Part shown: in pieces, positions 23,201-63,913 of the stretch | Layout: the number at the start of each line of letters is the position of its first letter | How positions within the stretch are numbered: position 1 is the first letter of the stretch | From: Mytilus edulis | Taxonomy: Eukaryota | NCBI RefSeq assembly: GCF_963676685.1 | Contig: NC_092344.1 | Coordinates: 33,852,001 to 33,916,000, forward strand | Direction of reading: 5' to 3' | Length of the DNA stretch: 64,000 bases | The notes under the pieces: model-generated | The model's input: the letters and a program-made list of their open reading frames with translations, nothing else | Databases searched by the model: none | What the model was told of the DNA's origin: nothing | Made by a program: the position numbers and the translations under genes

Positions 23201-26200
23201 ATATTTAATGGACGTTAAACAAAATTAAAATATTCTCTAACATCTCAGAAATAAGTATACTGTAACTCTTTTTCGGGTTTCTTACAATTTAATGCAAATT
23301 CTCGTTTTATAATACTATTTTTTAAAGATGCAACTCTCCTGTATTGCTGAGACTTCCCTTTTGATACCAACATACTTCATGTGCACTGGAGAGTCCACGC
23401 TTAGAATAAAAAGAGTTGAAATGAAGCATTAATTCACGCCAAATTCATTAGACCATGCAGTAAACTTAGTTGATTAAAATGAAAAGAGATGTTTTGTATA
23501 TGGCAATGAGACAGTTCATGTTACATCATAAGTCTCAGCTGCTAGATTTTTTAAAAGGAGGATAATATTCGAAAATGCGTTTAAATTATATGTACCGTAT
23601 TTTTAATAGCAAGCCCTTCAAAGAGGAATCATGCCAAGAATAAAGAAACCGAACGAATTATATTGGTGGGTAGGTTTATCTCACAACCGAGCTCAGGCAA
23701 GATGGATATGGCAAGATGGCAGCTTTCTTTCACTACGTTCAAGGTATATATCAAGGAGGTAGGTAGGTAGGGCAAGTTCCCCTGTATTTATTTCACGCTG
23801 TAAAAAATCTTCGAATCTTTTCAAAATATAACAGTGTTTTTGTCGTTTTAAGGAGGAAATGGGCTTACCCATGTGACATTTACTTTTTGTGTTTTAAAAC
23901 CCTATAAAAGCTTGGCGAGACAGATCTTCCTGGTCAGCTTTATTTTTATTGATGCATCGTAATGGCTTTCATCATCCCATGAAAAGGTTTCAATCACAAG
24001 TACTAAAATCAGAAAATTAGGAAACTGACTGGAATCAAATGTTAAAGAAACTAATTTAGGTACTTAATTGAATTTGAAATTATTACGTCTTTTATAAAAT
24101 TTCAAGTAACTGATCTCCCTTGTATTAGCCAATCAAAACATGGCATTTTAACGTGGTGTATAATAATACTAAATTAATTATTCCTGTGGTTTGATATCTA
24201 GAAAGAACATGTGGCAATCATTTTTAGTTGTTCCATTATTTAATATGTGACAATAACATTCTACTTACAGCATTGGTTATCATGTGACAATTATAGCCTA
24301 GTTATTCTATTGGTTGATATGTGACAATAACATTCTAGTTACATGTTTACACCATGATCGGTTATCATGTGACTATCATTTTCTACTTGTTTCATTGGTT
24401 AATGTGTGACAGTAACATTCTAGTTAAACCAACGGTTATCATGTGACAATTTAATCTAGTTGTTTCATTGGCTGGCATGTGACAACAAGTAATCTAGTTA
24501 TTTCATTGGTTCAAATGTGACAAATCCAATTTTGATATCTCATTGGTTCACACATAAAGTTGAAATTTCTCCATTGATGTCAGCTACATTGATTTTTGAC
24601 ATAATAAGTTTAACATTATTTTTGAGTTTCTAAGTTTAGCTTATATATATTAAAATGAAAAGATGTTATTTTATATAAAGAACTGAATTCACTATCTGTT
24701 ATGTGTTATAGCCCATGGGCCGCAGGTGAACCAGACAACAGAGGTGGAAACGAATTATGCGCAGACTTTCATTTCTCAGGGAAAATGTTCGACAAAGACT
24801 GCAGTGAACGAAAACCATTCATTTGTCAGAGAATTAAGAGTGAGTAAACTATGTCTATGATAAAGATGTGTTCTTGGTTTTTTTTATTTTTATCTTAACA
24901 TTTCCTGAGTTTGTGAGGAAAGAGGAATCGACTCTAGTAGACACTAACCTATGCTAATAATTTGTCCGACACAGACATATTCCGAAAGAGTGGTATTACG
25001 CCAAATGTCAAGACCTATTTAGAGTATCTACGTTTTTTTCTTTCTGAATTGTCAAGACATGTGTTCTGCACTTTAATCGGGTTGTTGTCTCTTTGACACA
25101 TTCCTAATTTCCATTCTAAATTTGATAAATTAACTTATCATATACTTAGACTAAATAACATATGAATTTTACCGTATGATAATAGCATTAAATTAACGTA
25201 TATTTCATATTTTTTCCAATTAGTGCTTAGCGGGCTGATATGAAAAGTTTATCACATGCTTCGATTGTTATCACATGCCTTTCCGTAACGTTATCACATG
25301 GCATTCCGGTGATACTCGGCAAATTCCGGAAAATACACCTCAATACTACGTTTTCAGTGAAAAACATTACAAAGTAGTGTACAAAACAATTATTTGGATA
25401 CTGGAAAATATATTGTGTAAAAAAATATAAAAAAAAAAAAAAAAAAAAAAAAAAATTATTTAATAAATGCATTTTTTAAAAGTTTCAAACATAATTTAGA
25501 AAGTTATTTTAAAAAAAGTTGACTTTTCCAAACAATGTTCATTATGTATATTGTTGAATTATTTTTTTTATCGATTCGTCCATGTTAAAATGGGTTTTTT
25601 TCTCTGTTGAGGCATATGTTAGAAAGACTCATATACCAAAATTTGGGTCCGACGTCCCTGAACTTTTCACTCTTTGAACTTCTTTTCTAAAAGGATCATT
25701 ATATGAATCTGTTATTTTTCTTTACTGTTGAAGCATATGATAAAAAGATCATAACATGTTATTTCATATCGCATGTATTATCAGCCCTCGGTCAATATCA
25801 GCCCTCGAGCCATGCGGCTCTTGGGCTGATATTGAACCTTGGGCTGATAATACATGCGATATGAAAAATGCCATGTAATAATCTGATAATATTCAACATA
25901 ACTATGTATTTACATTATAAAAAAGTCGTTGTCAGATTCAAAAGAAAAATGATATTAATCAATATCAATTTTTAAATTTATTTTTGTCCGGAAATGATTT
26001 TCGCAGTCGATACGTAATGTCACAGTGTTAAAATGAAAAGGTATTTTAAATGAAACATTTCAAACATATATATTTTCAGTTACACCAGCACCAAGACAGA
26101 CTAAAACGACGACGTCATCAAATGTTTTGTCCTACACCCCAACCTTTGTTTCAACTTTACCTCCAGAAACAACAGTTCCTTTGCAAACATCTGAAATATC

Positions 26201-29200
26201 AACACAGCATGAAAAAATATCAACACAACAGAAGACAACAAGTACTTCAAACATTACGAAAACATCAGTTGTATCAATGACGTCAAAGTCTCAAACCAAA
26301 CTTAAACTATTGGCTAAGACGACCACACCACCACCAAAATTGACCGCATCAACAGTTTCGGCATCCAAACCTTATAAAACAACACCAGCAAAACTAACAA
26401 AACCAACAGTTTCCGCACCACTTGTAAATCGTATACCTGAATGTCCAGGGGTATTTGCGTATGGAATACAATGGCCAGCAACGAGAATAGCTGCAACAGT
26501 TAAGCAGCCTTGTCCTGAAACGGCAGGTACGAACTACATATTTTACTTAGAAAATCTTTTTAAACAAGGATTTACACTCAACATATGATTTATGACTCTT
26601 TCAAAATGCCTGCGCATCTTTGGTTCTAATTTTTTTTTATGAAATAAGTGCTTATAAAATTAAAGTATAAAAAATACTGATTTGTTTAGAATTTACATTA
26701 GTTTAATGATGAACTATATACATTGCTTACAGGATATGCAACCTGGACTTGTGTTCCGGACTCAGGCTGGAAGGAACAACCAAATCTAACAGAATGCTCA
26801 TCATCTGATATCCAAAGAATAAACAAAATGGTAATTATCTGTCGTATGCATATGATTAGACATTATATTAAATCAGACAAAGAATTGTCAAAACGTTTAC
26901 AATCTCTTGCATTACCGGGTCATGTTTTTTTCAACTTTTTCGTCCATTATTTCAAGTCAATTTAAATTATTTCCTACTAGAGTTAGACAGCATTATTTTT
27001 TTACTGTAAAACAACTAATTTTCTCAAGTGATTCGTTTTAGCAACCTTTCCAAGGAAAATGTAAAGCTTCCTTTTTATTTTTTAACATTTTCATATTCCC
27101 ATTTAATACTCAAACTAATATGTTATACAGCATTGTATTAATAATGTACACACATGTTTATTGTATACAGGTAGATTCAGTTATCAATCACAAGAGCGTT
27201 CCAACAACAGAAGATATGGTATCGATTGCAGCCAACTTGACAGAGAGTGTTGTCACTTCATATCACATGACAGCAGCAGATATTTCAACATCAACTGCCA
27301 TCCTTCATCAAATGGCGAAAGCAAAGCCTAAAAATGTAAAAGAAACAGAAACGATGCTCAAGGTAGGCTTAGAGTGTCACAGCAAATTGATTATTTATTT
27401 TAACAGAGGGACGAAAGATACCAAAGGGACAGTCAAATAATCTTCACTCAAATAACATTGAATATTAAGAAACTATTAATGCCAAATGGCTTCAAAATAA
27501 GAACCGGTGAAGGATCAGACAATTCCATGGTTAAAAGCACAACCAAATTATTGAAATGAAAGCGGTTCACAAAACAGTATAATGAAAAGTAAGGGTTAAA
27601 AATATGGACTCCATTGAAAAACTGGTGTATTTTTTTAAGCAATCGAAGGAAAGAATATCTTGATAAGAAAAATAATTACAAACTTGAAACAGAAATATGT
27701 CTTGAAGGGATTTTGGTTGATGTACATGAAAAATACACTTATGCGATACAAGTAAACAATACAAATATCAAAAGAGCGTATCAATTCCTGTCATTGACAA
27801 AAGGCATCAAAAACTAATATATTATGTAACTGTCCCCAATTCAGAAGGTTGTATATCAGTGGTTGTCATTGCTTGTTGTCTGTCATAGATATAGGAAGAT
27901 GTGGTGTGAGTGCCAATGAGACAACTCTCCATACAAATAACAATTTAAAAAGTAAACCATTATAGGTTAAAGTACGGCCTTCATTTTTCTGTTTTTCATT
28001 TATTGTTTGTCATACATTTGGCCCTTGTTTTCATCTTTTGAATTGTTTTACAACTTTTCATGTCGGAGCCTTTCATAGTCTTCTCTACGGTATGTTTTTT
28101 AGTCGTTTCTATGGTTCCTTTCAGTTTTTTTTTTAATCATAATTGTTATTATGCTGTTTGCTTTTAAAGCCAAATTAGACTTTTGACCCCAATTTCACGG
28201 TCCACTGAACATAGAAAATGAAAGTGGGAGTTTCAGGTTAAAGTTTTTGGTCAAGGTAGTTTTTGATGAAGCTAAAGTTCAATCAACCTGACACTTAGTA
28301 CACTTGTTGCTTATGATATGATCTTTCTAATTTTAAAGCAAAAGTAGACTTCTTACCCCAATTTCACGGTTCACTAAACATAGAAAATGAAAGTGGGAGT
28401 TTTAGGTTAAAGTTTTTGGTCAAGGTAGTTTTTGATGAAATTGAAGTCCAATCAACTTGAAACTTAGTACATATGTTCCCTATAGTATAATCTTTCTAAT
28501 TTTAATGCCAAATTAGATTATGACCCAATTGTTACAGTCAATGAAACATGGAAAAGGATAGTGCAAGTGGGGCATCCGTGTACTTTGGACACATTCTTTT
28601 TTTATTTAACGTTCATTTTTTACATTTTTTATAGTTGTTTTTATTATTTTGTTATAAATGTATCTACAGGAAGTTGTTAAGGCCGGGAACTACCTCTTCA
28701 GTAAAACAGAATCCAGTAAAAACATCGAAGCAGACGACAAAGAACGTGCTGCATCAGACCTCTTGTTTGTTATGGAGGATACAGCTTTAGGAATGACAGA
28801 CTCTCTTCAGACCACTGCATCAATTAGTACGAAAACAGAAAAAATATGTAAGTGAATTTAATTTAAACAATTATTTTTCATTTTCTAGAATATTAACAAA
28901 ACAATGCATCTAGTACATTTATATATACATATTACATTTTTGTTTTTATTTTATATGAGGGCAATTTCAAGAAGATTTATTGTAATTTTAGTAGCTATTT
29001 ATTTCTATTTATTTTATTAAACGAATGTATCGTTAGTAAAAAGATTCATCAGTTCCTGTTTGACTTATAATTGAGATTGGCTGTTTGGTATCTGCCGCCT
29101 TACGCCTGTTGTACAGTTGCCTATAATCGCCCATGTCATTTGAACTACTAGAATTATGGATAATTATTTCAATGGCAATCATACCTCATCTCCTTATATA

Positions 29201-32200
29201 TCATTGTAGATGTTTCACTCAACGTAATAAATATAAATTCTTCTACACAAGACTTGGAATACAACAACGGAGAAGAAGGAACAAGTTTCATAATACCATA
29301 CTCAGTTTTACAAAAATATAAAATAGGTAAATATTGTAGTCAAAACTAATTTTCTAAATAAAAGTGTACCCAGAGGACAGAACAGGCATATAATACAGAC
29401 TGACATCTACAGAAGACTCACCAGCTACACACTGATCAAATAGATAGAAAATCAAATCAATCAGAAAGACAATGGCTTTTAAATTTTCGAATACATCTTT
29501 AAACAACAAAATTAGTGGGATAATGTAAATCATAATTTTAAGATGACAAACGACTACACACTTGCAAGACGAAATACAACAAACCAACAAGAACCTTATC
29601 CAAAATGAAGTGAATGAAAATATTGAATATATTCTAAACTAATACATGTTAAAATATAAGATAGAATATATATCTCCAAAGTAAATACACTGTAAGTCCC
29701 ATTACTCTTGTTCAAAACAATTGATCATATTGTTTTCCACATTACGGTCTCACATTGAATATCTTAAAAAGTCTGGTGACTCTATTGCACATCTATCCAT
29801 CTCAACTTCAAATACTAAAATTGAGAATGGAAATGGGGAATGGGGAATGTGCCAAAGAGACAACAACCCGACCATAGAAAAAAAAAACAACAGCAGAAGG
29901 TCACCAACAGGTCTTCAATGTAGCGAGAAATTCCCGCACCCGGAGGCGTCCATCAGCTGGCCCCAACTAAACCTTAACTTCAATGATGTTGTTTACAGAT
30001 GGATTAGTGAAAGCAGTATTCATGACTCATTACAATCTGGGTAATATTCTGAAGATTAACGACGATACGGTTGATGTAGAAGTTGCCAGCAATATCGTAT
30101 CAGCTTCAATAGCCGGAGACAAAACCATTGAATTTCCATTGAGTCCTGTCATATTTACCATCCAGTTATCACGGGTAAAAAAACTATTTTTTAGTGTTTT
30201 TATATAAAAAAAATGTGGTGATGATAAAAATTTCTTTTCTTAGGAATGTCAAAACTATTTATATTTTTAAATTGTTCTTTGAATTTGTTGAGCTTTTCAG
30301 AAATATACTATTATTCATATCAATTTATTTACTCTAAGATGAGAATACATATGTATTTCATTATGCAAGGAATACCATTCTCTATCTGCTCTAAAGAATG
30401 ATATTTCAATAACTTAATTATATAAGATTTTTCTTTATTTCAGACCTACGGGGAAGCTGCTCAACCTTTATGCTCTTTTTGGAATTTCTCGGAAGGGTAA
30501 GTTGAATATCATTTTAATAATAAAGTATGTTAAAAGAGAAAACAGAACTTTGTTAATAATATAATAAACAACTTTTGTATTAAAAATAGCCATAGAGTAG
30601 ATACTTTATGAAATTATTAGTGAACTGTACTCACCCTTAAGAGACATAATGTCTAAATTTTCGACTAATTGTAAATAAAACTTAATAAAGTTTGTTCGTT
30701 TGAAGTTCTTCGGGATTTACCTCGTGTTTCATCAGAAATAGCAAACTTTTGAATACCAATTAAGAATTGAATGCTTCTTTTTGTAAATTTATTGGGGTGT
30801 AAAAGCGTTGACCGAAGTACATTTTGTGTGAAGCGCGGAAGCGCTTCATTCTAAAAATGTACGCACGGTCAACGCTTTTACAACCCTATAAAGTTACAAA
30901 AAGAAGCATTCAATACTTATAATTACATTTTTTTAGCTATGATCACGAAAACACGAATTTTATATATTTTATTATTTAATTCACCTGTGCACTTTATTGT
31001 TGGAGCACGTGTTATCATGAATGAAAAGTTGTATTGAGCATTACAACTGCTTACGGAATAACACGTGATGTGCAGTTAGCCAATCAGAATAAAATATTAT
31101 AATGAAACATACATCTAATGTAATTATTGATGTATGAAAACATGAGGAGAATAGTCCAACCGTCTGACTGTCACTTTGCATGATAGAGTTATAGTTCCTT
31201 AGTCTCTAAATAGTTTCTAAATTAGAATTCTTAATCGAATATTTCAATAATGAATTGTTTCATTGTCATATTTATAATTATTATTCAGTGTTTATGGACA
31301 ATGGTCACAAGAAGGTTGTAACCGTATCAAAGAAAATGCAACGCATGTGACATGTCAGTGTACCCATCTAACAAACTTTGCTATATTGATGGATGTTTCT
31401 GGAGTAAAGGTACTATACTTATTAACAAGATAATTATTGACTGGATTTAGAAATTAAGTTACAGAGATACAAAATGAACATCAACATGCCACATCTTAAA
31501 TATTTATTTTATAAGATATCGTAACTTCCAAAAAATATTCGAAAACATAGAAAGCATCGTTGATTGTCTGATGTATGTAAAAACAAGAATGTGTCCTAAG
31601 TACACGGATGCCCCACTCGCACTTCCATTTTCCATGTTCAGTGGACCGTAAAATTAGGCTTTAAAGTCTTATTTGGCATTGAAACTAGAAAGATCATATC
31701 ATAGGGAATCATGTGTATTACGTTTCAAGTTGATTGCACTTCAACTTCATCAAAAACTATCTTGATAAAAAACATTAACTTGAAAATCGCACTTTTATTT
31801 TCTATGTTCAATGGACCGTGAAATTGTGGTCAAAAATATATTCCCCATTGAAATTTGAAAGATCATATCATAGGGAACATGTGTACTAAGGTTCAAGTTG
31901 ATTGGACTTCAACTTCATCAAAAACTACCTTGACCAAAAACTTTTACCTGAAGCGAGACAGACAAACGAACAAACGGACGGACGAACGAACGGACCCACA
32001 GACCACAAAACATAATTAATGCCCCTCTACTAGGTGGGGCATAAAAACAGTGAAGCATTATCATGTCTATCTCATAAAAGTATTGAAAAAATGAACATTG
32101 TATTTATACATTTCAGCTGACAAACGAACACACACAATTCTTGAGATATATTACTTTTGTTGGCTGTATCATCTCTATTGCTTGTTTAGCCTTGAGTTGG

Positions 32201-38200: not shown

Positions 38201-41200
38201 AGAAGTTCGCTCATTGAAGACCAGTCCATCCATAGACAGGAGTTTTGGGATAAGCTCATCAATGAAGTGTCCAATTATTCGTCCCATACCATACACTCAG
38301 TTCTTTTGTATATGCCTTTGGTGACACTGATTAGTGATTAGAATTCAATAATATTATAACGGCAATCATCCTTATCACACACATTTTCAAATAGACTGTC
38401 CTTATGCAAATTAAAACATAAGCTCCGCCCCATCAGTTGAAATACATGCGTCTTACCACAAATACCGTTTAACCGAATTACCTAAATTGGGAATCAAAGC
38501 TCGGCTTTTTTCTAAATATAATTTACAAATAGCTGACTGTTAGAAATTATTGCTCTAATTTTAATTAGTACAGCAGTGAAGTATGACACAATATATAATT
38601 TATGAAACATATACGAATATGCGCATAATCTAAAGATTACATAAAGTAAGATATTATTGATGATTACACTGTTTATAGATAATGACCAGATCAATTTCAT
38701 ATCTTTTTCAGATTAATACAATAGTTCTTATGTACGCCTTATCAATGGTATGCAGACATTCGGCTTACGTATTTGCAAGAGAAAAAAGTCAACAAAGTAA
38801 TTTCAGGTGAGAAAACGAATGTATCTTAGAATTAATTACAGATCATCCCTGGTTTTTATTGGCGTTCCTGTTGCTCAGTCATTAGTTTGTAGCAGTTTGT
38901 TGTAGTTAATTAACAACGACAGCACTTGTAAAAAGTAAAATAACAAAAATACCGAATTCCAATGAAGATTAAAATCGGAAAGTGCCAGTTCCAGAGCTCA
39001 GTTAAACTGATTGAAAGATTATGTCATCAGTCATATGAAAATCAAGCACAATCACTCTCGTTAGGGGTTAAGTATCCATACCATCATAAAATATATGAGA
39101 AGAAAATAACTCGTATCATGTGGACAACTGGTATAAAAATAAATGTGTTTATTTCCGATACAAAGACCCTATGACAAATGTATGAGTCAATATTAATAAC
39201 AAAATATGCCATCTTAAATAATCTGACAACTTTATCGTGACTATTTCCCTTCCGTATATAAATCTGTTTAAAGGTTTTATTAAAGAATTGAATGCTTCTT
39301 TTTGTAAATTCATTGGGGGTGTAAAAGCGTTGACCGAAGTACATTTTGTATGAAGCGCGGAAGCGCTTCATTCTAAAAATGTGCGCAAGGTCAACGCTTT
39401 TACAACCCTATGAAGTTACAAAAAGAAGCATTCAATACTTATAATTACATTTTTTAGCTATGATCAAGAAAACACGAATTTTATATTGTTTTTATTTAAT
39501 TCACCTGTGCACTTTATTGTGGGACCACGTGTTATCATGAATGAAAAGTTTTATTGAGTGATGCAATTGCTTACGGAAGAACACGTGATGTGCAGTTAGC
39601 CAATCAGAATAAAGTATTATAATGAAACATACATCTAATGTAATTATAAGCTTTTGAAGTGAATGCTGACATTTTAGTGTGTTGTAAAATAATATTATCA
39701 TAAAAGATTGGATATGAAATACCTGAACGTGTAAGATGTCTGCACGTTGATTTATATTTACAAATCATGTCCTTGTATCGATGATATACAACAACTTTTC
39801 AGTAATACAGAGATTTTTTTCGTTAAAATCAAATACGTTGTAATAACATTAACGGTACCAATTTTCCTACACCCGATGAGCATTTCGACAATACCTGTCT
39901 CTTCAGTGATGCTCGTGGCCAAAATATTATGAAATCCAAAGCTTACATAAAAGATGAAGAGCTATAATCCAAAAGGTCCAAAAAGTATAGCCAAATCCGT
40001 CAAAGGAATCCGAGATTTGCATGAGAGAGATACATTTCTTAATTTATAATAATTTCTAACATTTTGTAACATGCACGAGCGAATCGAAAAACTTGAGATA
40101 TACAAGCACCTTAAGATGGTGAAATAGGAACGTTACAATCTTAAAAGGGATAATCAACAATAGGAAATGAAAAATAAAATTCTTTTAACATACTTTTTGA
40201 TATAAAACTCCCATTTAAGATATAGATATTAAGATCTAGAAAAGGGCAGTGTTTATTAGCTTTATCTATAGTCAGTTCAGCAGTATAAATCTCTGTAGCG
40301 TACATACTGAATTCGTCATTATTGTAAGCCAATATATAACCCAATTATTTGATAGTCCTATTATGTTTTTGTATCAGATTTTTTTTCGATGGAACTTTGT
40401 TGATTTTAGTCATAAATTGTACCTCATTCAGTTATAACAATACAGAGAAAGGTCCGCAATAGCTGGTACAATTGGAATTCCGATATTTTAACGATTTACG
40501 GAATCTTTATAGCAAACAACATGTTATCTAGTAAAAGATCAAGGGCAGTAAAGTATCAAAGCAAAATGACATAGTTCTTTTGTTTGTTGTTACGAAAAAA
40601 TGACATAAATAAAGGCTACAGTAGTATACATACCGCTGTTCGAAATTCATAAATCGATTGAGAAAAAAACAAATCCGGGTTACAAACTAAAACTGAGGGA
40701 AACACATGAAATATAAGAGAACCACGGCACAACCGGAAAACAACATTAAAATGTAACACACACACAGAAACGAACTATAATATAACAATGTCCATTTTCC
40801 TGACTTGGTACAGGACATGGTGGGTTGATCTTAGTTTTGTGGCATGTCAAACCTCCGCTTTTATGGCAACGTTAAATATAACATTTTAAGAGTTTGGATA
40901 TATATAGTCGCATTCTGAGTTTTGAAGTTCTCATTTAATAAGCATTTAAAACTTGGCTTCATAGAGCTTTAAAATACTTTCAAATCGAATCTGCTAAAGA
41001 GAATGCTAGCTGCAATTCAAATTCATTCACATCCGAAACTCTTGACGTTTAAGTTCAATTAAACTTTTTACATAGTTCATAGATTGTACTAAAATTATTT
41101 GGTTTTACAGAGCATGGATACAAGGTGCTTTTGCAGTTGAAGTTCTTCTTGGATCAACATGGGTATTTGGATATTTCTTCATCAATGAATCAACAGTAGT

Positions 41201-44664: not shown

Positions 44665-44957
44665 AGCAGCAACCATTTGATTTTCTGGGGGGGGGGGGGG
44701 GGAGGGGGGCTATGTCTTTTTTTGGAAAAACAAGTTTGTTTCCAGTTTTTGGAGAAAAAAATAATTTGTTTTTGATTCTGAGGAAAAAAAAATGTTTGTT
44801 TCACCCTCAGCTGCCACTATATGTAATGCTAAAATTGAAAGAAAATAATTGTTTTCGACTTGTCACGAAAAAAATAGATTGTTTTTCGCCGCAGGCGAAA
44901 AAAAAAGTTTGTACAGAAAAAAAAACCACCCCCCCAGAAAATCAAATGGTTGCTGCC
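44665..44957. mobile_element. MITE with TTA target duplication (PIF/Harbinger-like)
   Basis: gcagcaaccatttgattttctggggg / cccccagaaaatcaaatggttgctgc; TTA at 44662 and 44958. Confidence 0.8.
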
Positions 44958-45544
44958 TTACCACATGTCAAAATTATTAAAGGATTTATCAGATTTATAA
45001 ATTGTCGCAATGTTCTTTTGCTTTGACACTGTTTGAAGTTACCGTGTAATAACTGAATCGGCACATATTTTTGCGCTTTTTAACTGGTAACCAAATGGTA
45101 AAAAATCAACACGGAGATGTGGTAAGATTACAACTTGAATGACGGGGACGTTATCATATCTGGCTCATTATGCAACCTTCAACAATCCCGGTTAAGTAAG
45201 CAATAAAAGACACCGTAGACAAATATAAAACATTACAAAAGAGAAATAATATAACTGACCTAATTTCTGTTAAAAAAAAAAAGCAAACACGTAGACAGTA
45301 AACCAAACGACAGACTCCTACGTCCATGTTCCAGACTAAGAAAAGGCAACACTCAAGAAAGGGGAAGGGGTGTAATCATGTTTGTCAAAGTTCAACCATC
45401 CTTTAAACGCAGTTATTCATCTAACGCAGTTCTGTGGGATAGCAATACAAAATAAAAGTAAACCGTTAAAATCAGTTGGAAAGCGTTTGACTCCTCAGAT
45501 TGGCACGAAGCTATTAGTTGCATAAAGTTCAATATTCATTAGGA

Positions 45545-47294: not shown

Positions 47295-50000
47295 TTAGTA
47301 TTGTCGCAATGGCAATCATACCACATTTTCTGACGAGGTTTCTGATCCTTATTTTTATCAGTAGCAAGAGTAGACTTATAAAGAAAATTGACAGTAATCA
47401 AATACCTTTTAACAAGATAATGTAGGGTATACTAAAGAAATCAAATAATAACGATTCAATATTAAAACTTAAGTGACGGAGAAGGGAAAATCATGAGGTC
47501 TATGATATGCGCAAAAAGGGGGGGGGGGCAAAAAAAGGGGGGTCTTATAACATTTTTTGATTGCGGAAGATTATAAACTAATTCAGTGCATGGTTCATGG
47601 TACCGTTCTCAGAATGTTCAATGTTAAAAATGGCTCAAATCAGAATATATTAAGAACCATATCCACTACAAACCTGCTTCATCAATTTTGTGAAACGAAA
47701 AAGAAGGTTTAAAGACGAAAACGAAGTTCTAAAATAATTTATGAATGCTAGTTTATATGAAACTTATTTATCACCCACCTTATTTACCATACACATAGGT
47801 CTCTCAATTCGAACAAAAGTATAAAAGACGAAGTATTGAATTTTCCCTCGATCTTTTAGATGTTCAGATTCTTATCGATAATTTCTTACATTTACTGTTA
47901 TTCAAACGTGCTCTACACTATGGACGCTTGTAAATGCTGCCCCTCTACTATGGAAAAATAAAGTAGACGATCAGCAAGTATATAAAAGGTCGATTATTAT
48001 CAGATAGTATCTAATAATTCAATATGGTAAAATAAGTTAAAATATAGTGTAATAAATAATACAAAATAGCTGTGTGTGTGCACGCACAAAAAAAAATAAT
48101 CAGATTATTTTGTTTTCAAAGTTTACGAAAACTATCAAACTGTACGCTGTATGCGTAAACAAAAGAACATAAAACATGTTTTTTTTTCGGTATAAAGTTT
48201 GAGTGTTGATGTTGAAAGTGAAGTTTGTGCCTGATATTCATATGATGAAGACATAATCTGTCAATCAGTTTAATTGAGGTCTGGAGCTGGCATGCCAGTA
48301 ACTGCTAGTAGTCTGCTGTTATTTATGTATTATTGTCATTTTGTATATTTTCTTTTGTTTCATATTCTGACATCGGACTCGGACTTTTCTTAAACTGAGT
48401 TTTACTGTGCGTATTGTTATGCGTTTGGTTTTTCTACCTTGGCTAGAGGTATAAGTCATTTTCAAAAAATGTCGAATTTTGAAATTGAAAAATTTATTAA
48501 AAGTTACTTATTCAAACAACCCTCTACATAAGCAAATCAAAACAAACAGTACTTAAAGAGCAACATTTTAAAAGATGCAACCTTAATAATGTCATACAAG
48601 AAACATTTTTTGATAGGTGGTACAATATTTTGTCTCTCCTGTTACCATTTTCAAAAGAAATTTTTGGTTATTAAGAAAAGGTTTAGATAAAATTTTAAGC
48701 TTGTTTTACGTAGCCAATTAGATGGTTTTTAAGAGGATAAACTTCTATATATATTCCTTCTGTAAAATAATAGATTATTTGCCAATTTTCTAGGTTGTAC
48801 TGAAAAATGCCTCTAAAAAATGGGTTTTCAAAGGGTGTAAAAATTACCACCAGTAATGCAGGTTTAATTAAGATATCAATTCATATTGTTCGACATTTTT
48901 TCTCTCTTTTAAATAAACCCAACATCAAGTAAATCCCTCATAAGTAAGCTTACTTTTCTCTTTATTTCATTGGTAACAGGAACGTACGTTTATGATATAT
49001 CACTATATAAAAGTTTATCCTGTTACCTTTTTGTCTATCCTGTTACCGATATCAGTATTGCACCTGCAAATGCTTAATTGAGAAGATTAAGACGTTATAA
49101 CTTTAAGATTAGTTCAAACAACGAAATATTTCATTCGTTTTGCAACTATATGTTAAGATGAAATTTTTAACGACGTTTCTGTCTACAATTGTCTATCCTG
49201 TTACTGTAACCATTGTAACAGGATAAACAAATTTCTTTATTTTTGAATGCTGTTGTGAAATAATTACTCCCTTTGGTGAAGTGATCATGGTTTTCTGTTG
49301 TGAATTTGGTTTCCAACACGTTACTGCACTTTTTACCAGTATACTGTTGGTGTAATTTATCAAAATTGTTGGTAACAGCATAGACATATAAAAAATACCC
49401 TCTATTTTTTTTCACAAAATGTCTTAAAATTTCTTTTCTCTACACTGTCGTTCAAGAAACGTGACGTTTTAAATGTAAAGGTAACTTTGCACTTTTGAAA
49501 TCAACATTGACTGATCCAATACATGTATTCATAGAGAGAACAATTTAACGGCTGATTTAAGTAGCGATAGCAGGATGGACATACACTTCCCGTACGCTGA
49601 TTGAATTTAGTTTGTAGAAAATATGTTACATATAATGATAAAGAAGCTATGATTTTTCGTTAGAGTAATTATAAACGTTCTGAAAAAGTCCCTTTTGCAG
49701 ATATCAAGGCGATCAGAAAATCGGAAAAAATCATATGAAATGTGTTTTTCTGACACTGTACGCACACAAATATCCCCAAAATTGGACTTAAAAAGATTTT
49801 AATCTTATCAAAATAGATGTAAAGATGGAGGGTTGAGATAGATCTAAAAAAAAACATGTTTAGCCCCGCCGCAATTTTGCGCCTGTCCCAAGTCAGGAGC
49901 CTCTGGCCTTTGTTAGTCTTGTATTATTTTTAATTTCAGTTTCTTGTGTATAATTCGGAGTTTGGTATGACATCCATTATCACTGAACTAGTATACATTA

Positions 50001-50459
50001 TAAGTTATGTGGTTTGCTACTGACGCCCTACGGATCCATAGAGGGTTAGTAAAATCCATATGGGGTGAGGCCGTAGGCCGAGTCACCTATGGATTTTACT
50101 TACCCTCTATGGATTCGTAGGGGGTCAGTATTGAACCGTATAACGAATTTATCGCACGCAGGACTTTTATTGCTGCAAAACAATTAGCAATGCAATACAA
50201 CAACATCAATAGTTGACGTCAACATTAACTGTAGATGTGACGTCATGAACCCCTATGAAATTAACTAACCCCCTACGTATCCTGGTTCCCGGTACATGTA
50301 CTACGTTCCAGGTATTAGCTTTTAGCATACTCTCTCACGTGTAACATACATAATATTGCGATCGGGAACCAGTCTACCCCGTACGGATCCATAGGGTGTC
50401 ACCACATGACGGCGTTAAACCAATCACAACGTGATAATTTACCCGCGGCGCGATAAATT
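50001..50459 (+). mobile_element. Hairpin-ended foldback element nested in a dispersed repeat (49820-50605)
   Basis: Hairpin 50004-50144 centred on ggccgtaggcc; aatttatcgc (50146) / gcgataaatt (50450). Confidence 0.8.
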
Positions 50460-54091: not shown

Positions 54092-56666
54092 CTTCTTGAG
54101 TGTATGATTATTGTTGCTCGTATAATCCTCCTCCTCTATAAACCAGCAGTATCTATAACAGTAATTATTTCTTGAGTGTATGACTACTTATGCTCCTCTA
54201 TTATCAAAACCAGCAGTATCTATAACAGTAATTACTTCTTGAGTGAATGACTACTTTTGCTCGTATAATCCTCCTCCTCTATTATCAAAACCAGCAGTAT
54301 CTATAACAGTAATTACTTCTTGAGTGAATGACTACTTTTGCTCGTATAATCCTCCTCCTCTATTATCAAAACCAGCAGTATCTATAACAGTAATTATTTC
54401 TTGAGTGTATGACTACTTTTGCTCGTATAATCCTCCTCCTCTATTATCAAAACTAGCAGTATCTATAACAGTAATTACTTCTTGAGTGTATGATTATTTT
54501 TACTCGTATAATCCTCCTCCTCTTTTATGAAAACCAGCAGTATCTATAACAGTAATTATTTCTTGAGTGTATGACTACTTTTGCTCGTATAACCCTCCTC
54601 CTCTTTTATGAAAACCAGCAGTATCTATAACAGTAATTATTTCTTGAGTGTATGACTACTTTTGCTCGTATAATCCTCCTCCTCTATTATCAAAACCAGC
54701 AGTATCTATAACAGTAATTACTTCTTGAGTGTATGATTATTTTTACTCGTATAATCCTCCTCCTCTTTTATGAAAACCAGCAGTATCTATAACAGTAATT
54801 ATTTCTTGAGTGTATGACTACTTTTGCTCGTATAATCCTCCTCCTCTTTTATGAAAACCAGCAGTATCTATAACAGTAATTATTTCTTGAGTGTATGACT
54901 ACTTTTGCTCGTATAATCCTCCTCCTCTTTTATCAAAACCAGCAGTATCTATAACAGTAATTATTTCTTGAGTGTATGACTACTTTTGCTCTTATAATCC
55001 TCCTCCTCTTTTATCAAAACCAGCAGTATCTATAACAGTAATTATTTCTTGAGTGTATGACTACTTTTGCTCGTATAATCATCCTCCTCTATAAACCAGC
55101 AGTATCTATAACAGTAATTATTTCTTGAGTGTATGACTACTTTTGCTCGTATAATCCTCCTCCTCTATTATCAAAACCAGCAGTATCTATAACAGTAATT
55201 ACTTCTTGAGTGTATGATTATTTTTACTCGTATAATCCTCCTCCTCTATTATCAAAACCAGCAGTATCTATTAACAGTAATTACTTCTTGAGTGTATGAC
55301 TACTTTTACTCGTATAATCCTCCTCCTCTGTTATCAAAACCAGCAGTATCTATTAACAGTAATTACTTCTTGAGTGTATGATTACTGTTGCTGGTATAAT
55401 CCTCCTCCTCTATTATCAAAACCAGCAGTATCTATTAACAATAATTACTTCTTGAGTGTATGACTACTTTTACTCGTATAATCCTCCTCCTCTATTATCA
55501 AAACCAGCAGTATCTATTAACAGTAATTACTTCTTGAGTGTATGATTACTTTTACTCGTATAATCCTCCTCCTCTATTATCAAAACCAGCAGTATCTATT
55601 AACAGTAATTATTTCTTGAGTGTATGACTACTTTTACTCGTATAATCCTCCTCCTCTATTATCAAAACCAGCAGTATCTATTAACAGTAATTACTTCTTG
55701 AGTGTATGATTACTGTTGCTGGTATAATCCTCCTCCTCTATTATCAAAACCAGCAGTATCTATTAACAGTAATTACTTCTTGAGTGTATGACTACTGTTG
55801 CTCGTATAATCCTCCTCCTCTATTATCAAAACCAGCAGTATCTATTAACAGTAATTACTTCTTGAGTGTATGACTACTTTTGCTCGTATAATCCTCCTCC
55901 TCTATTATCAAAACCAGCAGTATCTATTAACAGTAATTACTTCTTGAGTGTATGATTACTGTAAGATTTGAAATATTCAAATTTTAAATATAAGTTTATT
56001 ATTTATTAAATGTTTAACTAACATATTCATTTATTCTTGTAAGAATAAGAAACACAGTTTTTACTATTTATTTATGAAAGCGCTAATGTAACGTTGCGCT
56101 ATTTTGAACAACACATTTTCCCGTTTCTGTTTTGTGACGTTACGCCTTTGACGTGCGCTTCGTCGTCTAGACTTTATTTGATTACATACGGATGCACATT
56201 GTTTTTTATTAGACAGATTATAGTTGGTAAGAAACTTTTTATGTATACTATCTTTTTATTACATCAAAACTTATTTAAAGAGAGAAAACATTGTATACTA
56301 TTTATTAGAAATATGCGTAACTTTTAATTATTATTTTAAACGTAATTTAACTTACGAGAGAACTTATGATACATGAATGAAATGGTTTTTATTGTTTGTT
56401 TAGTTTAATGTGAATACTTAAACATGTATCTTATTATAATTTGTGTACTTTTACTTATGTGAAATTATTCTTTATTTGTAGAGAAACGATTGTTAGCGAC
56501 CATATGATTTTATAAAAGAATAAAAGATAGATACATGGTGCAACTTAACTCGCATACTCATTTCTTCGCCCTAAGTTAAACTTTATGTGATTCGTACAAT
56601 TACTGTTGCTCGTATAATCCTCCTCCTCTATTATCAAAACCAGCAGTATCTATTAACAGTAATTAT
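54092..56666. repeat. 81/82-bp tandem satellite, about 23 units plus a final unit split by a solo LTR
   Basis: Unit ttcttgagtgtatgactacttttgctcgtataatcctcctcctctattatcaaaaccagcagtatctat(t)aacagtaatta(c/t); period 81 (54241 to 54322). Confidence 0.97.
55960..56598. mobile_element. Solo LTR (639 bp) with 5-bp target duplication
   Basis: TGTaaga...tcgtACA termini; ATTAC at 55955-55959 and 56599-56603; the satellite unit resumes exactly; AATAAA near 56519. Confidence 0.75.
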
Positions 56667-56679
56667 TTATTTTCAAATT

Positions 56680-57020
56680 AAAACTATTTACATCTGAGAT
56701 CTAAGGAGTTATTGATGTGAGATGTTGCTGTCAAGGCCTCTGGTATGATGGTAAGGCTGGCCTTGAACCCTTCAAGTGTAGCTAATGTTGTGTTTTTTTA
56801 ACGGTAAAGTGTTCATTTCCCCATTTCCCTATTTCATCTTTGAAAGAAGAAGTATATGTACTAGTCTTTCTTAAGAATATACTGTTGGTATATGCAATGA
56901 CCTCATCTGGTCCGTGAATCTCCAGGTTTGTAGTAATTAGACGTTTCAATGTCTACCAATCTCTTTTGTATCTTGAAGGCCATGGTGATGCGGTCTTTGC
57001 AGCTGCGATCTTTTATAGCA
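56680..57020 (-). mobile_element. LINE ORF2 3' remnant (second copy ~59700-60030)
   Basis: MAYKIQKRLVAI..Y..DSRTR*GH..Y..FFFQRSNREWNTL..SLEGFKASL matches the YKI..TR.H..SFFPRTIREWN.LP..SL..FK tail of CR1/RTE-X-type LINEs. Confidence 0.65.
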
Positions 57021-58046
57021 ACCAATAATGCTAGGAAGATTATTTTCGAACGTTTGATTTTTTTGTGTTTAACGTGTTTTCATATACAATAAGTCATATA
57101 TCTTTTTTTTTTAATCTTTAATATTGAATATTTTTGTTAAATGAAAACAGTAATTAGTTTCGTGCTTCAAAGTGCTTTTTTTTTAGCTTCACCTGCAAAA
57201 TCAAATCAAAACATTTGAATCCCAAGTAAGTAAACATGTAAGCCATAAACGTGTGAAGAGATATATGATGAAAAGAGGCTTTAACAAATAGCCAAAAAAA
57301 CTTTTGTCTAATAGAGCTGTACACGTAGTAATTAATTCATCAACGGAGAATTTAGGAAATCGTGTCAGTAACAAAGCACGTAACTACTGAAAGCTTGTTA
57401 TTTTGAGACAGAGGAGCACACATCCTTAGGGTGTGTTTACACGATACCATAAAGAATATTATCCGATTTGTCGTCCGTTTCAATGATGTCTCTATCTCCT
57501 AGGTAAATCGAAAGGCCGAATCGCCCGATTTAGAAACGTTTTGTATGAATGAATGTGATTGGGAAATTCTACTCTGAATGAATAACTATTATGAATGAAA
57601 TGAAGTCTTTTATTTATCTAACCAGATTGACTTCAAAATGCTCGTAGCAAGGATCGTCAAGTTGAATTAAATAATTGTTTAAACAAATATTTGAAATTAA
57701 ATTGCCTATTGTATACAATGTGGGTAAAACCTATATGATTTCCTTCCCTTTAACTGATACTTTGTTCTAGTGCTATGTTTAATTTAAAAAAAAAATCAAT
57801 CAAAATTGCTTTCTCAAGACGAAATCGCAGTAACTATGAATTATTGTTTCGTTTCCCGAATAAATATGTCATTCTGTTGCATTCATTTTATTCTCCCTAA
57901 AAGTATCATTAATTAAGTATTTCGTTTCATTGAAATATTTCCAGCTTCTACACGTTTTACTCGCTGGTTTGCAATCAACTCATTGATGTTTGAAGCGGAA
58001 CCACTTACAAATCAGTCGTCGAATTTTAAGCGATCTTTGATAAACT

Positions 58047-58490
58047 GTCTTTCTCTAATTCTTCGTCAATTTATCCCTTTCTGCACCCATTGTATAAAAA
58101 AATTTAATCAACGTGTGGTTCGTTTGATCTCAGTACTTCATTGGTTAAAATCCGATTGTGACGTCGAATTTTCTTGCTGTCCTCTGAATTTCCTATTGTG
58201 ACGACATGAAAAAAGGCGACCATGCCTGACGACGTCACATAGAAAGAACACATCTTTTTGCAGATCATTCGAAAAGAAGGAATAAGTTTGCCTGCATAAT
58301 GTTAGAAAATCATTAGAGAAACAGATTCCACCACCAAATCTCGTGTAATACGATATTTATCCACTCTCGACAGTTAAATTATCAATTTTAAAGTCCTCGC
58401 CCAGGCGGCTCGGACTTTAAAATTGAAAATTTAACTGTCTCGAGTGGATAAATATCGTATTACACTCGATGCAGTGGTGGAATCTATATT
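58047..58490 (-). mobile_element. Hairpin-ended foldback element flanked by TAAACT direct repeats
   Basis: tttctctaat (58050) / attagagaaa (58312); hairpin ~58323-58486; absent from the paralogous site near 61097. Confidence 0.85.
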
Positions 58491-58892
58491 TAAACTATTG
58501 TTTCGACGTCATATAACAATGAAGATGTTTCACTTGTGATATTTAAAAAAAGCGCAAGGTATTGACTAGCCAAATCACTCACAATCCGTTTTCAGTCTGC
58601 CTATCAGCTTACTTGCAATCTTACCAGTTACGTTCTAGCATGACATGGATTTATAAGACAAGCTAGTTAGAAATAAGAAGAGACTGTTAACTTTAAACTA
58701 TTGTTTCGACGTCATATAACAATGAAGATGTTTCACTTGTGATATTTAAAAAAAGTGCAAGGTATTGACTAGCCAAATCACTCACAATCCGTTTTCAGTC
58801 TGCCTATCAGCTTACTTGCAATCTTACCAGTCACGTTCTAGCATGACATGGATTTATAAGACAAGCTAGTTTGAAATAAGAAGAGACTGTTA
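58489..58892 (+). repeat. 203-bp tandem duplication
   Basis: tttaaactattgtttcgacgtc...gaagagactgtta at 58489 and 58692, nearly identical. Confidence 0.9.
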
Positions 58893-59109
58893 GAAATCAC
58901 AATTCTTAAAGAGATTAAAATTAAACGCAAACACAAGTCACAATCAATTCATTGCTAGAGGGAAATGACAGCAAGGCAGTCTTAGCAATCTACTAAATAG
59001 ACAAAGTCACTCCAAACTACTATCGTTACTATGAATCTTACTTCATGACATATACAATCTTAGTCAGCCATAGTCAATTAACCCTGGCACCGATAACTAC
59101 CCCTGCTAT

Positions 59110-59388: not shown

Positions 59389-59632
59389 ACCCCTGCTATA
59401 AAACTCCACTTCACTAAAGAACAAATCAAGGTAACAATACACAAGATAAAACTATTCACAAACTATTTCACTTATAAACAAGATGATCGCTTGTTTATAT
59501 TCCAACAACTGAAACCATTTTTTGAACGACCAAAACAACGGTTAACCATTACTAAACTCTCATCAGAAAAACAACAATAAACCATTTCAATGATCTGTTA
59601 TGCAAAATACGACGGTTAACCATTCCTGATCT

Positions 59633-59692
59633 GCCGTGGTGTAGTGGCTAGTGAATCTTAATACTACTAACACAAGGGTTCCTGGTTCGATC
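59633..59692 (+). mobile_element. tRNA-derived SINE head (A and B boxes)
   Basis: gccgtggtgtagtggcta ... ggttcgatc; no complete cloverleaf. Confidence 0.55.
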
Positions 59693-61412
59693 AATTTTAA
59701 ACTATTTACATCTTGGATCTAAGGAGTTCTAGTCGTGAGAAGCTCCTGTCAAGACCTCTGGCAGAATAGTAAGGCTGGCCTTGAATCCTTCCAGTGAAGC
59801 TAATGTTGTGTTTTTTTCCGTTGAAGTGTTCCATTCCCTATTTGATCTTTGAAAGAAGAAGTATATGTACTAGTCTTTCTTAAGAATATACTGTTGGTAT
59901 ATGCAATGACCTCATCTGGTCCGTGAATCTCCAGGTTTGTAGTAATTAGACGTTTCAATGGCTACCAATCTCTTTTGTATCTTGTAGGCCATGGTGGGCG
60001 GTCTTTGCAGCGGCGAACTCTTATAGCAACCAATGGTGCTAGGAAGATTATTTTCGAGATATTACGTTTTTTTTTTTTTTGTGTTTAACGTGTTTTCGTT
60101 TACAATAAGTTATATATCTTTTTTTAATAATCTTTAATATTGAATATTTTTGTTAAATGAAAACAGTTATTAATTTCGTGCTTCAAAATGCTTTTTATTT
60201 AGCTTCACCTGCAAAACTCAAATCAAAACATTTGAACCCCAAGTAAGTAAACATGTAAGCCATAAACGTGCGAAGAGATATATGATCAAAAGAGGCTTTA
60301 AGAAATAGAAAAAAAAAACTTTTGTCAGATGGAGCTGTACATGTAGTTTCTTGGTTTATCAACGGAGAATTTAGGAAATCGTGTCAGTACCGAAGCACTA
60401 ACTACTGAAAGCTTGTTATTTTTGACACAGAGGCTAAACAATTCTTACGGTGCGTTTACACACTAAAGAATCTTATCCGATTTGTCATCCGATTCAATGA
60501 TGTCTCCAAGGTAAATCAAAAGGACGATTCACCCGATTTAGAATCGTTTTTTATGAATGAATGTAATGGAAAATTGTACTCTGAATGAATAACTATTATG
60601 AATTAAATGAACTCTTTTATATATCTACCCAGATTGACTTCAAAATGCTCGTAGGAAGGATAATCAAGTTGAATTAAATAATTTTTTAAACAAATATTTA
60701 AAATGAAATAGCCTATTTGTTTTTGTATGAATAAAATGCGAGCAAAACCTATATGATTTATATCCCTTGAATTGATACTTTATTCTACTGGTATGTTTAT
60801 TTTACAATAAATCAATCATAGAAGGTATGTCTAATCAAAATTATTTTCTCAAGACGAAATTGCAGTGACCCTAAATTATTGTTTCTTTTACCTAATAAAT
60901 ATGTCATAATATTTAAATAGTATTTTATTCTTAAAAAACGTATCTTTTTTTCAAATCGAAATGATACTTAATTAAGTATTTCGTTTCATCGAAATATTTA
61001 CATCTACTGCACGCAAATATTTTACATCAATCAGCTCCTTGATGTTTGAAGCTGAACCACTTAACAACCAGTCGTCGAATTTTCAGCGATCTTTGATAAA
61101 CTATTGTTTTGACGTCATATAAAAATAAAGATGTTTCACTTGTGATATTTAAAAAAAGCGCAAGGTATTGACTAGTCCAATAATTCACAATCCGTTTTCA
61201 GTCTGCCTATCAGCCAACCGGCCGACTGGCAAGCTTACGATTTACGTTCTAGTTAAATGACATATATCGTATCACCACTACACGGTATAACCTATATCGT
61301 ATCCCCTCTCTATATGGCGTTATCTATATCGTACCACCACTTCAAGATATTATCTATACAGTATCACCTCTACAAGGTATTATCTATATCGTACCACCAC
61401 TTCAAGATACTA

Positions 61413-62455
61413 ATATAGAATAATACATGGCAAAATCCGTATTGCATGCTGTATCACCACGAGAAACCAATATCAGTCACGAGGGCCGAAGATTCCGAGG
61501 GCAAATATCGGTCGAGTGGTGATACAGCATGCGATATCATATATTTTTACAAAACTTGATTCATGATATGCGTGTAAGGGTATAATCGTTTGATTCTGAG
61601 GTGGGGGCTTGGCAGAGTTAAAAAATATTCAGGACCCAATTTAGATGAAAATGAATAATATTGTCTTAAAACACATGAAAATTAAATATTCTGGACCCAA
61701 ATACATGTTTGTACTTATATACAAGGTATCACTGAAAATCTGGAAAGAAGCATTTTGATAATTTTCTAAAATGATTTTGTTAAGTCTGAATCAGTATCTA
61801 AAACAACTCATTTTCTCTAGCAAGTTTTTTTTTTTTAGAAATTCCAACTAAATGAGGTTACATTTTACATCATGCCAGGAAATACAGCAATTTGACATCA
61901 TAGGGTAAACTTTTGGTTACCTTCTGCTGTTGTTTTTTTCTATGGTCGGGTTGTTGTCTCTTTGGCACATTCCACATTTCGATTCTCAATTTTATTTGAA
62001 GTCGTTCGATTTATGACGTTACACCAGGTATGCGATTCGGGTTTTGTCATGCGATACGGGTTTAGCTATGCGATAAGGGGTATGCGATACAGGGTATGTG
62101 ATTCAGACTGGAAAAAAGAACCTTTATTAGATATATAAAAATGCTGTATTTAGTACTAAATTTAAATATATGATAATATCAGATTATTACATGGCATTTT
62201 TCATAACGTATGTATTATCAGCCCTAGGTTCAATATCAGCCCAACAGCCGCATGGCTCGAGGGCTGATATCGACAGAGGGCTGATAATACATACGAAATG
62301 AAAAATGACATGCTATGATCTTTTTATCATATTATGCTTCAACAATGGAGAAAAATAACAGATTTATATATTGATTCTTTTACGTGGTTCCCAAATAGAA
62401 GTTGAAAGAGTGAAAAGTTCATGGACGTCAGACCCCAAATTTAGTGCATTCGATA
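61413..62455 (+). mobile_element. Two adjacent hairpin-ended elements of the ATATGATA family (~61413-62176 and ~62177-62455)
   Basis: Each begins with an ..atacatggca.. hairpin followed by tatcatat; the first ends in atatgataa at ~62168. Confidence 0.65.
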
Positions 62456-62458
62456 TAA

Positions 62459-63337
62459 ATAGAGAATAATACATGGCAAAATCCGTATCATATGTCGTAT
62501 CATCCCGAGACATCAATATCAGCCCAAGGGCCTTTAGGCCCGAGGGATGATATTGGTCGAGGGTGATACGGCATGTGATACGGATTTTGCCATGTATTAT
62601 ACACTTTATCATATATTTCAACAGAAGAGTATTATATTATATGAACTGTTTTCTGATCCATAGCACTGGGTTACCTCCAGTTCTACTTTTGTCTTGTTTC
62701 AAAGGCCTTACAAGAACTGCTCAATTACTTATCCGAAGCACCTGGGTTACCTTACAATTTGCGTGCTGTTGTTTTAAAATATTTTGTTTATTACTGTATT
62801 AATTTGTGAGTTTTGTATTTTCCATAGTTGCATTTAGTGTGCCAAAAAATATGAAAACTTGACGTTCGTGACGTCACATACAATATGAAAACTCGAAGTT
62901 CGTGACGTCAACATACCAAACAATGACGTCATTCAAAAAATTTACCTATTTTGAGGAAAATTTTTCTTAAGCAAAAAAAAAACCAAAACTGACTTTATGT
63001 AAAAAGAAAAAAAAAAAAAAAAAAAAGTAGGGGTGTGATAAAGGGTATGCGATAAAGGGTAGGGGTGTGATAAAGGGTATGCGATAAAGGGTGCGCATCA
63101 AAGTTGCGCGATATGGATTAAACAGCAGGCTATTTATCACATATGTAAAACTACTGTATTTACTACTAAACATATGATAAAGTCTTTTATCATATGTTTA
63201 GTAGTAAATACAGTAGTTTTGCATATGTGATAAATAGCCTGCTGTTTAATCCATATCGCGCAACTTTGATGCGCACCCTTTATCGCATACCCTTTATCAC
63301 ACCCCTACCCTTTATCGCATACCCTTTATCACACCCC

Positions 63338-63372
<35 letters not shown>

Positions 63373-63913
63373 TTAAGTCAGTTTTGGGTTTTTTTTTTTG
63401 CTTAAGAAAATTTTTCCTCAAAATAGGTAAATTTTTTGAATGACGTCATTGTTTGGTATGTGACGTCACGAACTTCGATTTTTCATATTGTATGCGACGT
63501 CACGAACGTCAAGTTTTCATATTTTTTGGCACACTAAATGCAACTATGAAAAATACAAAACACACAAATTAATACAATAATAAACAAAATATTTTTAAAA
63601 CAACAGCACGCAAATTGTAAGGTAACCCAGGTGCTTCGGATAAGTAATTGAGCAGTTCTTTTAAGGCCTTTGAAACAAGACAAAAGTAGAACTGAAGGTA
63701 ACCCAGTGCTATGGATCAGAAAACAGTTCATATAATATAATACACTTCTGTTGAAATATATGATAAAGTGTATAATACATGGCAAAATCCGTATCACATG
63801 CCGTATCACCCTCGACCAATATCATCCCTCGGGCCTAAAGGCCCTTGGGCTGATATTGATGTCTCGGGATGATACGACATATGATACGGATTTTGCCATG
63901 TATTATTCTCTAT
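62459..63913. repeat. ~1.45-kb imperfect palindrome made of two ~720-bp hairpin elements head-to-head
   Basis: Arms 62459-63181 and 63187-63913 are reverse complements; centre atatgataaa-gtct-tttatcatat. Confidence 0.95.

Follow-up and report, generated by a model that had tools for sequence, protein, structure and literature searches.

The window analyzed here, a stretch of 64,000 nucleotides of the Mytilus edulis genome (contig NC_092344.1, positions 33,852,001 to 33,916,000), contains copies of four families of short repeats that have one asymmetric layout. Read hairpin first, the order in all four families is spacer-A...A'-B'-body-B, that is, a long hairpin (A-A') at one end, followed by a body bounded by a short inverted repeat (IR) pair, B' and B. 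We refer to the families as F1 (copies at 30760 and 39281), F2 (49997), F3 (58051, minus strand) and F4 (25135, 61413, 62177, 62459 and 63187), the last with subgroups F4a and F4b. A first-pass annotation had noticed the layout and guessed that the families were partners of a Crypton-like tyrosine recombinase or of another hairpin-using transposase. The evidence below indicates that they are very probably non-autonomous CryptonA elements, and suggests that they probably move as one folded DNA strand.

Both F1 copies lie on the plus strand. The first (30760..31127, 368 bp) consists of its own spacer (30760-30766), hairpin (30762-30918), B' (30919-30929), body and B (31117-31127), and the second (39281..39647, 367 bp; hairpin 39283-39440, B' 39441-39451, B 39637-39647) is 94% identical to it. 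F2 (49997..50456, plus strand, 460 bp; hairpin 50004-50144, B' 50146-50155, B from 50450) is hosted by a common repeat, of which an empty site was observed. F3 (58051..58489, minus strand, 439 bp) has its own spacer at 58483-58489, B' at 58312-58321, B at 58051-58059 and a hairpin (58323-58485) that holds three tandem G-A pairs. The F4 copies comprise an F4b copy (25135..25888, minus strand, 754 bp; hairpin 25746-25884, B' 25735-25744, B 25135-25143) and a cluster near the window end. There, an older copy with a decayed internal junction (61413..62176, plus strand, 764 bp) adjoins by its B end, head to tail, the first part of an F4b-type copy (62177..62458, plus strand; hairpin 62181-62321, B' 62323-62332), which hosts two F4a insertions, continues on the plus strand at 63914..64000 and exits the window. 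The two F4a copies, one on the plus strand (62459..63180, 722 bp; hairpin 62461-62605, B' from 62605, B 63172-63180) and one on the minus strand (63187..63913, 727 bp; B 63187-63195, B' 63758-63767, hairpin 63766-63912), are 97% identical and stand tail to tail on either side of a 6-bp target spacer (63181..63186).

The layout of a hairpin A-A' followed by B'-body-B is real. All of the IR pairs described in the first-pass annotation were located, at 30919/31117 and 39441/39637 (11 bp each) and at 50146/50450, 58050/58312, 62605/63172 and 63186/63758 (10 bp), and each pair adjoins a hairpin of 139-163 nt at a single end. The CCAAT motifs that it had placed near the opposite end in three families lie 48 nt (F1, in the body), 38 nt (F2) and 94 nt (F3) from the B end. 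The family of five copies with a tttatcatat pair stood in part: both F4a copies have the pair, but in the 25135 copy it is a 9-bp pair and not the 10-mer; the 61413 copy is a member, as an older F4 copy, but its internal B' is gone; and the 62177 copy is real, but the two inverted F4a copies sit inside it and it continues beyond 63913. Similarly, the layout common to four families was confirmed, but calling them unrelated was slightly too strong since short end motifs and geometry are common to them. What had been missed was an A'-B' junction that mirrors the joined ends, a target with a 6-bp spacer, and a strand bias. Another element in the window (44661-45126) has a hairpin-like end, with 36-nt arms and a long unpaired interior, adjoining a 10-bp IR pair, so that it is alike in outline and different in hairpin type. 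Elsewhere in the genome, further short non-autonomous families with the same layout were seen at L290:2610-2909, L277:9335-9625 and L286:3933-4515, one of them F1-like.

Searches of the 1.37-Gb assembly (14 large contigs) returned 1,487-4,053 first-look candidates per family, figures which are not copy numbers. All 30 fetched copies of each of F1, F3 and F4a had identical start and stop points and divergent flanks, although these sets were the best-scoring matches, a choice that favors full length, and include a few rows from the same locus or host repeat. Identity among these best-scoring copies was 98-99% in F1, 93-100% in F3 and 96-98% in F4a. F2 is a low-copy family, for which three copies were found, each with hairpin, body and B-end region. 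Collecting copies and defining their ends, as the first-pass annotation had advised, thus gave dispersed copies of F1, F3 and F4a with fixed start and stop and with no target duplication. Head-to-tail genomic junctions were also present, and loose contig ends with low agreement fell at 58050 in three of three independent DNA runs and at 58489, which was listed for two of the three. At 169 loci that were not chosen by the family queries, F1 was seen three times, always as hairpin plus B end, and F3 formed 20 match groups, of which one was full, four had the hairpin and part of the body, six the hairpin only and nine the body only; 18 of these 20 groups came from recombinase loci, and most of these can be put down to ends or to nested units there. 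A metagenome scan yielded seven loci, and the four looked at were too short or had no hairpin.

The window families have no symmetric terminal inverted repeat (TIR) and no fixed target site duplication (TSD). At the four boundary registers tried for each of F1 and F3, the only agreement was a common AT in F1 (25 of 30 copies) and matches within TA runs. Ordinary MITEs (miniature inverted-repeat transposable elements) with TIRs, moved by a DDE transposase and adjoined by an unrelated palindrome, might have been proposed from the resemblance of B'/B to a short TIR pair. Such an identity was rejected as it is contradicted by empty sites without added target bases (described below), and it retains next to no probability given that the hairpin moves with the body and sets one end, and that no TSD was fixed at the tested registers, which bears out the first-pass view that these are not classical two-TIR MITEs. 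Terminal direct repeats of 4-6 bp, as in fungal and oomycete Cryptons, were only chance-like or partial, appearing where the target resembles the spacer. Animal Cryptons have been reported without terminal direct repeats (PMC3212892), so the lack of them here does not exclude CryptonA.

Evidence for CryptonA comes from recombinase genes in the same genome. A profile search with PF12012 (DUF3504) gave 150 scored matches among 430 candidates, and we compared 119 recombinase-centered stretches of 10 kb with 20 arbitrary stretches. By a strict detector, the layout encloses the gene at 36 of the 119 recombinase loci, versus 11 and 14 of 119 when decoy positions were used and one of the 20 arbitrary loci, and any hairpin within 3.5 kb was present at 95 of 119 versus 8 of 20; the 119 loci include multi-copy families, so these counts are not independent. 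Boundaries defined by flank divergence in 25 multi-copy clusters (from the first 99 loci) fitted both the hairpin end and B in 14 by our own reading. Among loci with Phage_integrase matches, taken as a negative control that was not clean, a long hairpin lay within 1.5 kb at 13 of 30 (L146-L175) versus 18 of 30 DUF3504 loci; other recombinase elements may have the same design.

When hairpin and junction were compared with those of 24 recombinase elements, high similarity was obtained for F3 with L098 (z score 41.6), F2 with L286 (35.0) and F4b with L111 (19.6). The long copies with the same termini that had been called for, encoding a tyrosine recombinase, HUH or DDE protein, were therefore found for F3, F2 and F4b, as DUF3504 recombinase elements. 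For F3, ends of its type surround a DUF3504 gene in L099/L126/L127, in L098/L130/L220/L227 and in L132; both F3 ends are common to the L098 and L099/L127 families, and the last 98 nt of F3 are 84% alike in L132. A protein search for an F4 partner with the L104 open reading frame (ORF) had at least 59 matches. The Crypton-like guess is thus supported twice over, by recombinase genes enclosed in the same layout in the same genome and by end sequences that match recombinase elements in three of the four families. By family, we regard a Crypton derivation as close to certain for F3, very probable for F2, strongly probable for F4 and likely for F1.

The partner elements are 1.6-5.6 kb long. All ten partner ORFs scanned matched DUF3504 and eight also matched Phage_integrase, and the catalytic residues R191, K225, H315, R318, H341 and Y350 were each at least 90% conserved in 74 homologues. 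In the F3 partner L099, the catalytic motifs are distributed over three exons; L223 and L132 are broken recombinase copies, and the L110 family has three copies more than 99.6% alike with an intact recombinase. The predicted structure (predicted local distance difference test score 80.5) was closest in fold to Cre, with IntI lower (TMq about 0.5 versus 0.37), and a sequence search of the PDB returned only QRICH1 and XerA at E<0.001. The distance of CCAAT from B was -36 to -39 in F2 and seven recombinase elements and -88 to -96 in F3 and four, and in 17 of 24 partner elements the longest ORF was directed away from B, toward the hairpin. Based on these fixed distances and the ORF direction, the CCAAT box is likely a left-over recombinase promoter. 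Public databases label these recombinases (P0001-P0115) as "KIAA1958-like" or "KCTD1_15", as if they were host genes; one recombinase of the genome is 100% identical to a public protein assigned to Mytilus edulis, which marks the DNA as mussel. About 12 kb before the window, L107:3414-6252 holds a Crypton of the L106 family that is complete, 2.8 kb long and has an open frame of 426 aa; in L098:614-6231, several hairpin units resembling F3 lie between the coding parts, within the element.

Reverse-complementing the joined ends B-A gives the internal junction A'-B', except that the spacer there is shorter. The deficit is 2 nt in F1, F3, F4 and most partners and 3 nt in the F2 group, while the L109 and L110 families do not fit this rule cleanly; in the comparison of spacers of 5 and 7 nt, the 7 nt is set by construction, and it is the invariance tables and the empty sites that support the register. 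Targets rebuilt from 84 copies, after removal of six duplicate rows, read T-A-N, the cut, seven bases, T and A, with T at -3 in 75, A at -2 in 81, T at +8 in 77 and A at +9 in 57 of the 84. The target is a symmetric TA-N-N6-N-TA site, with cuts at TA-N↓N6↑N-TA. Within the window, exactly 6 bp separate the two inverted F4a copies; when both were removed in silico, the remaining sequence aligned without a break to the 25135 copy (83%, 376 columns), which thus supplies the matching empty site; the gap and this match together indicate that each copy entered at the cut of its own strand, at opposite spacer edges. Other empty sites agree, in L013 (F1), the host repeat (F2), L256 (F4a) and L099 (F3-type junction), and they have no added target bases. 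Rolling-hairpin replication was also tried as an origin of the inverted F4a dimer and was rejected, as the halves are about 3% apart, the outer flanks differ and removal leaves an empty site. In L099:1301-6465, an autonomous element is inserted exactly in the internal junction of an F3-type copy, so the junction itself is usable as a target. Insertions of F4a (L244, L247, L256) were seen at sites resembling B, within other F4 copies or next to them; a second 6-nt gap, ahead of a B'-like motif, is present in L247.

Two further identities for the families can be weighed at this point. Non-autonomous Helitron2/Helentron elements (HINE), moved by an HUH RepHel enzyme, have asymmetric IRs of 8-15 bp beside a terminal hairpin and no TSD (PMC3627910), and long Helitron ORFs are common in the mussel genome (138 matches). 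However, the subterminal IR lies 140-170 nt from the end here rather than 20-30 nt, the target is a TA-N8-TA palindrome rather than a T run, and the ends enclose recombinase genes; we judge this origin to be very unlikely, though least so for F1. The other identity is that of non-autonomous DIRS-like retroelements, in which the internal mirror would be a complementary region that splints a cDNA circle. The A'-B' junction is indeed complementary to both ends, like the internal complementary region (ICR) of DIRS, and Phage_integrase loci with hairpins nearby do exist in the genome, but only a single family match, an F4a hairpin fragment, was found in the 30 loci. Inverted long terminal repeats (LTRs) are missing and the ten scanned partner ORFs had only recombinase-type domains, and the two introns that one partner keeps in genomic copies 98% alike speak against an mRNA intermediate, which makes a DIRS-like origin even less credible than a Helitron one.

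The position of the spacer in the copies bears on which strand is exchanged. Of 36 copies picked by gene and not by ends, 35 have the element's own spacer at the hairpin end and one has it after B; in non-autonomous copies it was at the hairpin end in 84 of 84 and exact at the right end in one of 84, a set biased by having been chosen by score. L140 is the one copy with its own spacer after B. In tyrosine-recombinase chemistry, crossover at one spacer edge fixes the strand that is exchanged, and a crossover at the hairpin-end edge would therefore exchange the hairpin-first strand. Read on that strand, 30 hairpins had 28 tandem GA/AG pairs versus no TC/CT pairs and 125 purine-purine mismatches versus 30 pyrimidine-pyrimidine ones, and an apex loop of the type C-GNA-G or C-GNNA-G was present in 15 of 29 on the hairpin-first strand versus one of 29 on the other strand. 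Tandem G-A pairs and GNA/GNNA loops stabilize single-stranded DNA. These strand-biased features of the hairpins favor the strand predicted to be exchanged.

We propose that the hairpin-first strand, when single-stranded, folds with its two ends brought together on A'-B' as an internal splint, and that the recombinase would then cut and join this strand alone, to give a closed single-strand circle. At one edge of its 6-bp spacer, a double-stranded target would then swap a single strand with the folded junction, and replication would complete the insertion. All four steps are inferred from sequence. In predicted folds, B pairs with B' with a probability of 0.90-0.98 in four of five circles. Such a route would account for the junction that mirrors the ends, for spacers carried at one end only, for the strand bias and for the lack of sequence conservation, and we place the probability that the elements move as one folded strand at about 0.65.

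The main alternative for the mechanism is that these Cryptons recombine in double-stranded form, or after extrusion of a cruciform, their strands being exchanged in a fixed order like those of bacterial SE elements or Tn916-type elements; the hairpin would then be an accessory binding site, origin or terminator. It would suit the predicted Cre-like fold, the canonical symmetric target with a 6-bp spacer and the nearly equal folding of both strands, and SE elements are reported to put the donor 6 bp at one end and to circularize one strand (PMC9345347). On the other hand, it leaves unexplained why an internal mirror with a shorter spacer is kept in sequence-diverse families, and why tandem GA (28 versus 0) and GNA/GNNA loops (15 versus 1) are on the exchanged strand, and a two-strand exchange with unlike spacers should give both product types, in place of the 35 versus 1 seen. 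We therefore consider double-stranded exchange unlikely.

Several observations weigh against a folded single strand or against the Crypton assignment on which it builds. One-sided spacer carry-over is also known from bacterial SE elements, for which a hairpin is not described in the available text (PMC9345347), and the recombinase fold is nearer to Cre than to IntI. No end-to-start circle joint occurred among the 15 joints listed of 107 in F3 contigs from DNA runs, and L099 RNA was nearly absent in three runs (about 6% of each read), with a handful of reads and no splice joints. Spacer patterns left 12 of 48 listed copies unmatched, the strict detector missed the layout at 83 of the 119 recombinase loci, and among the 25 clusters one end fitted in six and the boundaries of five were unclear or off. 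The best partner similarity of F4a among the 24 recombinase elements was weak (z score 4.7), as was its predicted B:B' pairing (0.23), and F1 had no partner among the 119 recombinase loci, with a best z score of 2.7 against the 24 elements. As for the hairpins, clean tandem GA is missing in 13 of 30 and is absent in F1, where 29 of 30 copies have another common mismatch; folding energy favors the top strand in only 25 of the 30, with slight differences; and the families are related, so that the strand counts are not independent.

The window also has repeats of other kinds. A 203-bp tandem duplication (99% alike) at 58489-58892 starts exactly at the F3 hairpin end and is possibly linked to its insertion. 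Tandem arrays have units of 81/82 bp (54092-55960), about 123-134 bp with an inverted part (36344-38004) and about 147 bp (1100-2165), and a 1.4-kb duplication at 83% involves 56673-58046 and 59691-61102.

To date, the movement of Cryptons has been argued by analogy, and their ends in animals have been reported as featureless (PMC3212892, PMC13465315). Now that the ends and a target consensus have been defined, recombinases that are young and intact identified and a substrate strand predicted, the mechanism is directly testable. If our proposal is correct, single-strand recombination by tyrosine recombinases, described for IntI and XerC/D (PMC5027507), would exist in animals too, and the layout would serve as a sequence-independent signature for Crypton ends and for their abundant unclassified derivatives. 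Abundant mussel repeats would also be classified, and the "KIAA1958-like" and "KCTD1_15" proteins would be re-labelled as transposases.

Like the mussel elements, CryptonA as published has a DUF3504 tyrosine recombinase as its sole recognized enzyme, no TSD and many short non-autonomous copies. No terminal repeats were found in animal Cryptons by Kojima and Jurka (2011; PMC3212892), in whose supplement they are given as n.d. in two medaka rows. The Glomhoppers (2026) are reported to have no detectable repeats, with "hairpin" and "palindrom" absent from the text available (PMC13465315), and Eulor5/6 were linked to Crypton with no hairpin or palindrome mentioned in the accessible part of that report (PMC5753468). 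Unlike the ends so described, those of the mussel elements have a long hairpin with an IR pair directly beside it, a junction in mirror form and a target that can be defined. We found no description of this end structure in the open literature searched; Repbase, Dfam and subscription papers lay outside that search, and the families may be catalogued there.

The remaining comparisons are with systems of other origin. SE elements likewise use a tyrosine recombinase, circularize one strand and have the donor 6-bp spacer at a single end, but they are bacterial, have four genes and few target sites, and neither a long hairpin nor an internal mirror is described in the portion available (PMC9345347). 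Helitron2/Helentron elements have a short asymmetric IR pair (8-15 bp), a hairpin beyond one IR and no TSD (PMC3627910), whereas the mussel hairpin is five to eight times longer, the target is palindromic and of recombinase type, and the gene is for a recombinase and not RepHel. In DIRS elements the ICR splints the cDNA circle, and they resemble the mussel elements in having internal sequence complementary to both ends and a tyrosine recombinase; the mussel elements differ in lacking reverse transcriptase (ten scanned ORFs) and inverted LTRs and in retaining introns. The ICR of DIRS is also named in PMC13465315. The attC sites of integrons are similar in being imperfect hairpins of comparable size (57-141 bp for attC; PMC5027507, PMC3458562) that are diverse in sequence and conserved in structure, with an unpaired spacer between two arms, strand-specific unpaired features and a one-sided crossover, a likeness in how they work only. 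The mussel elements differ in having no conserved AAC triplet, an enzyme whose predicted fold is nearer to Cre than to IntI, a site built from the element's two ends and an internal splint, and many dispersed targets; attC uses a single strand, and in the mussel elements this is suggested by the one-sided spacer. We lean slightly toward animal CryptonA representing a eukaryotic form of structure-guided single-strand recombination, in which the internal mirror would hold the two ends of a folded strand together as an attC-like site, replication would finish the insertion, and a Cre-like enzyme would paste the strand into TA-N8-TA.

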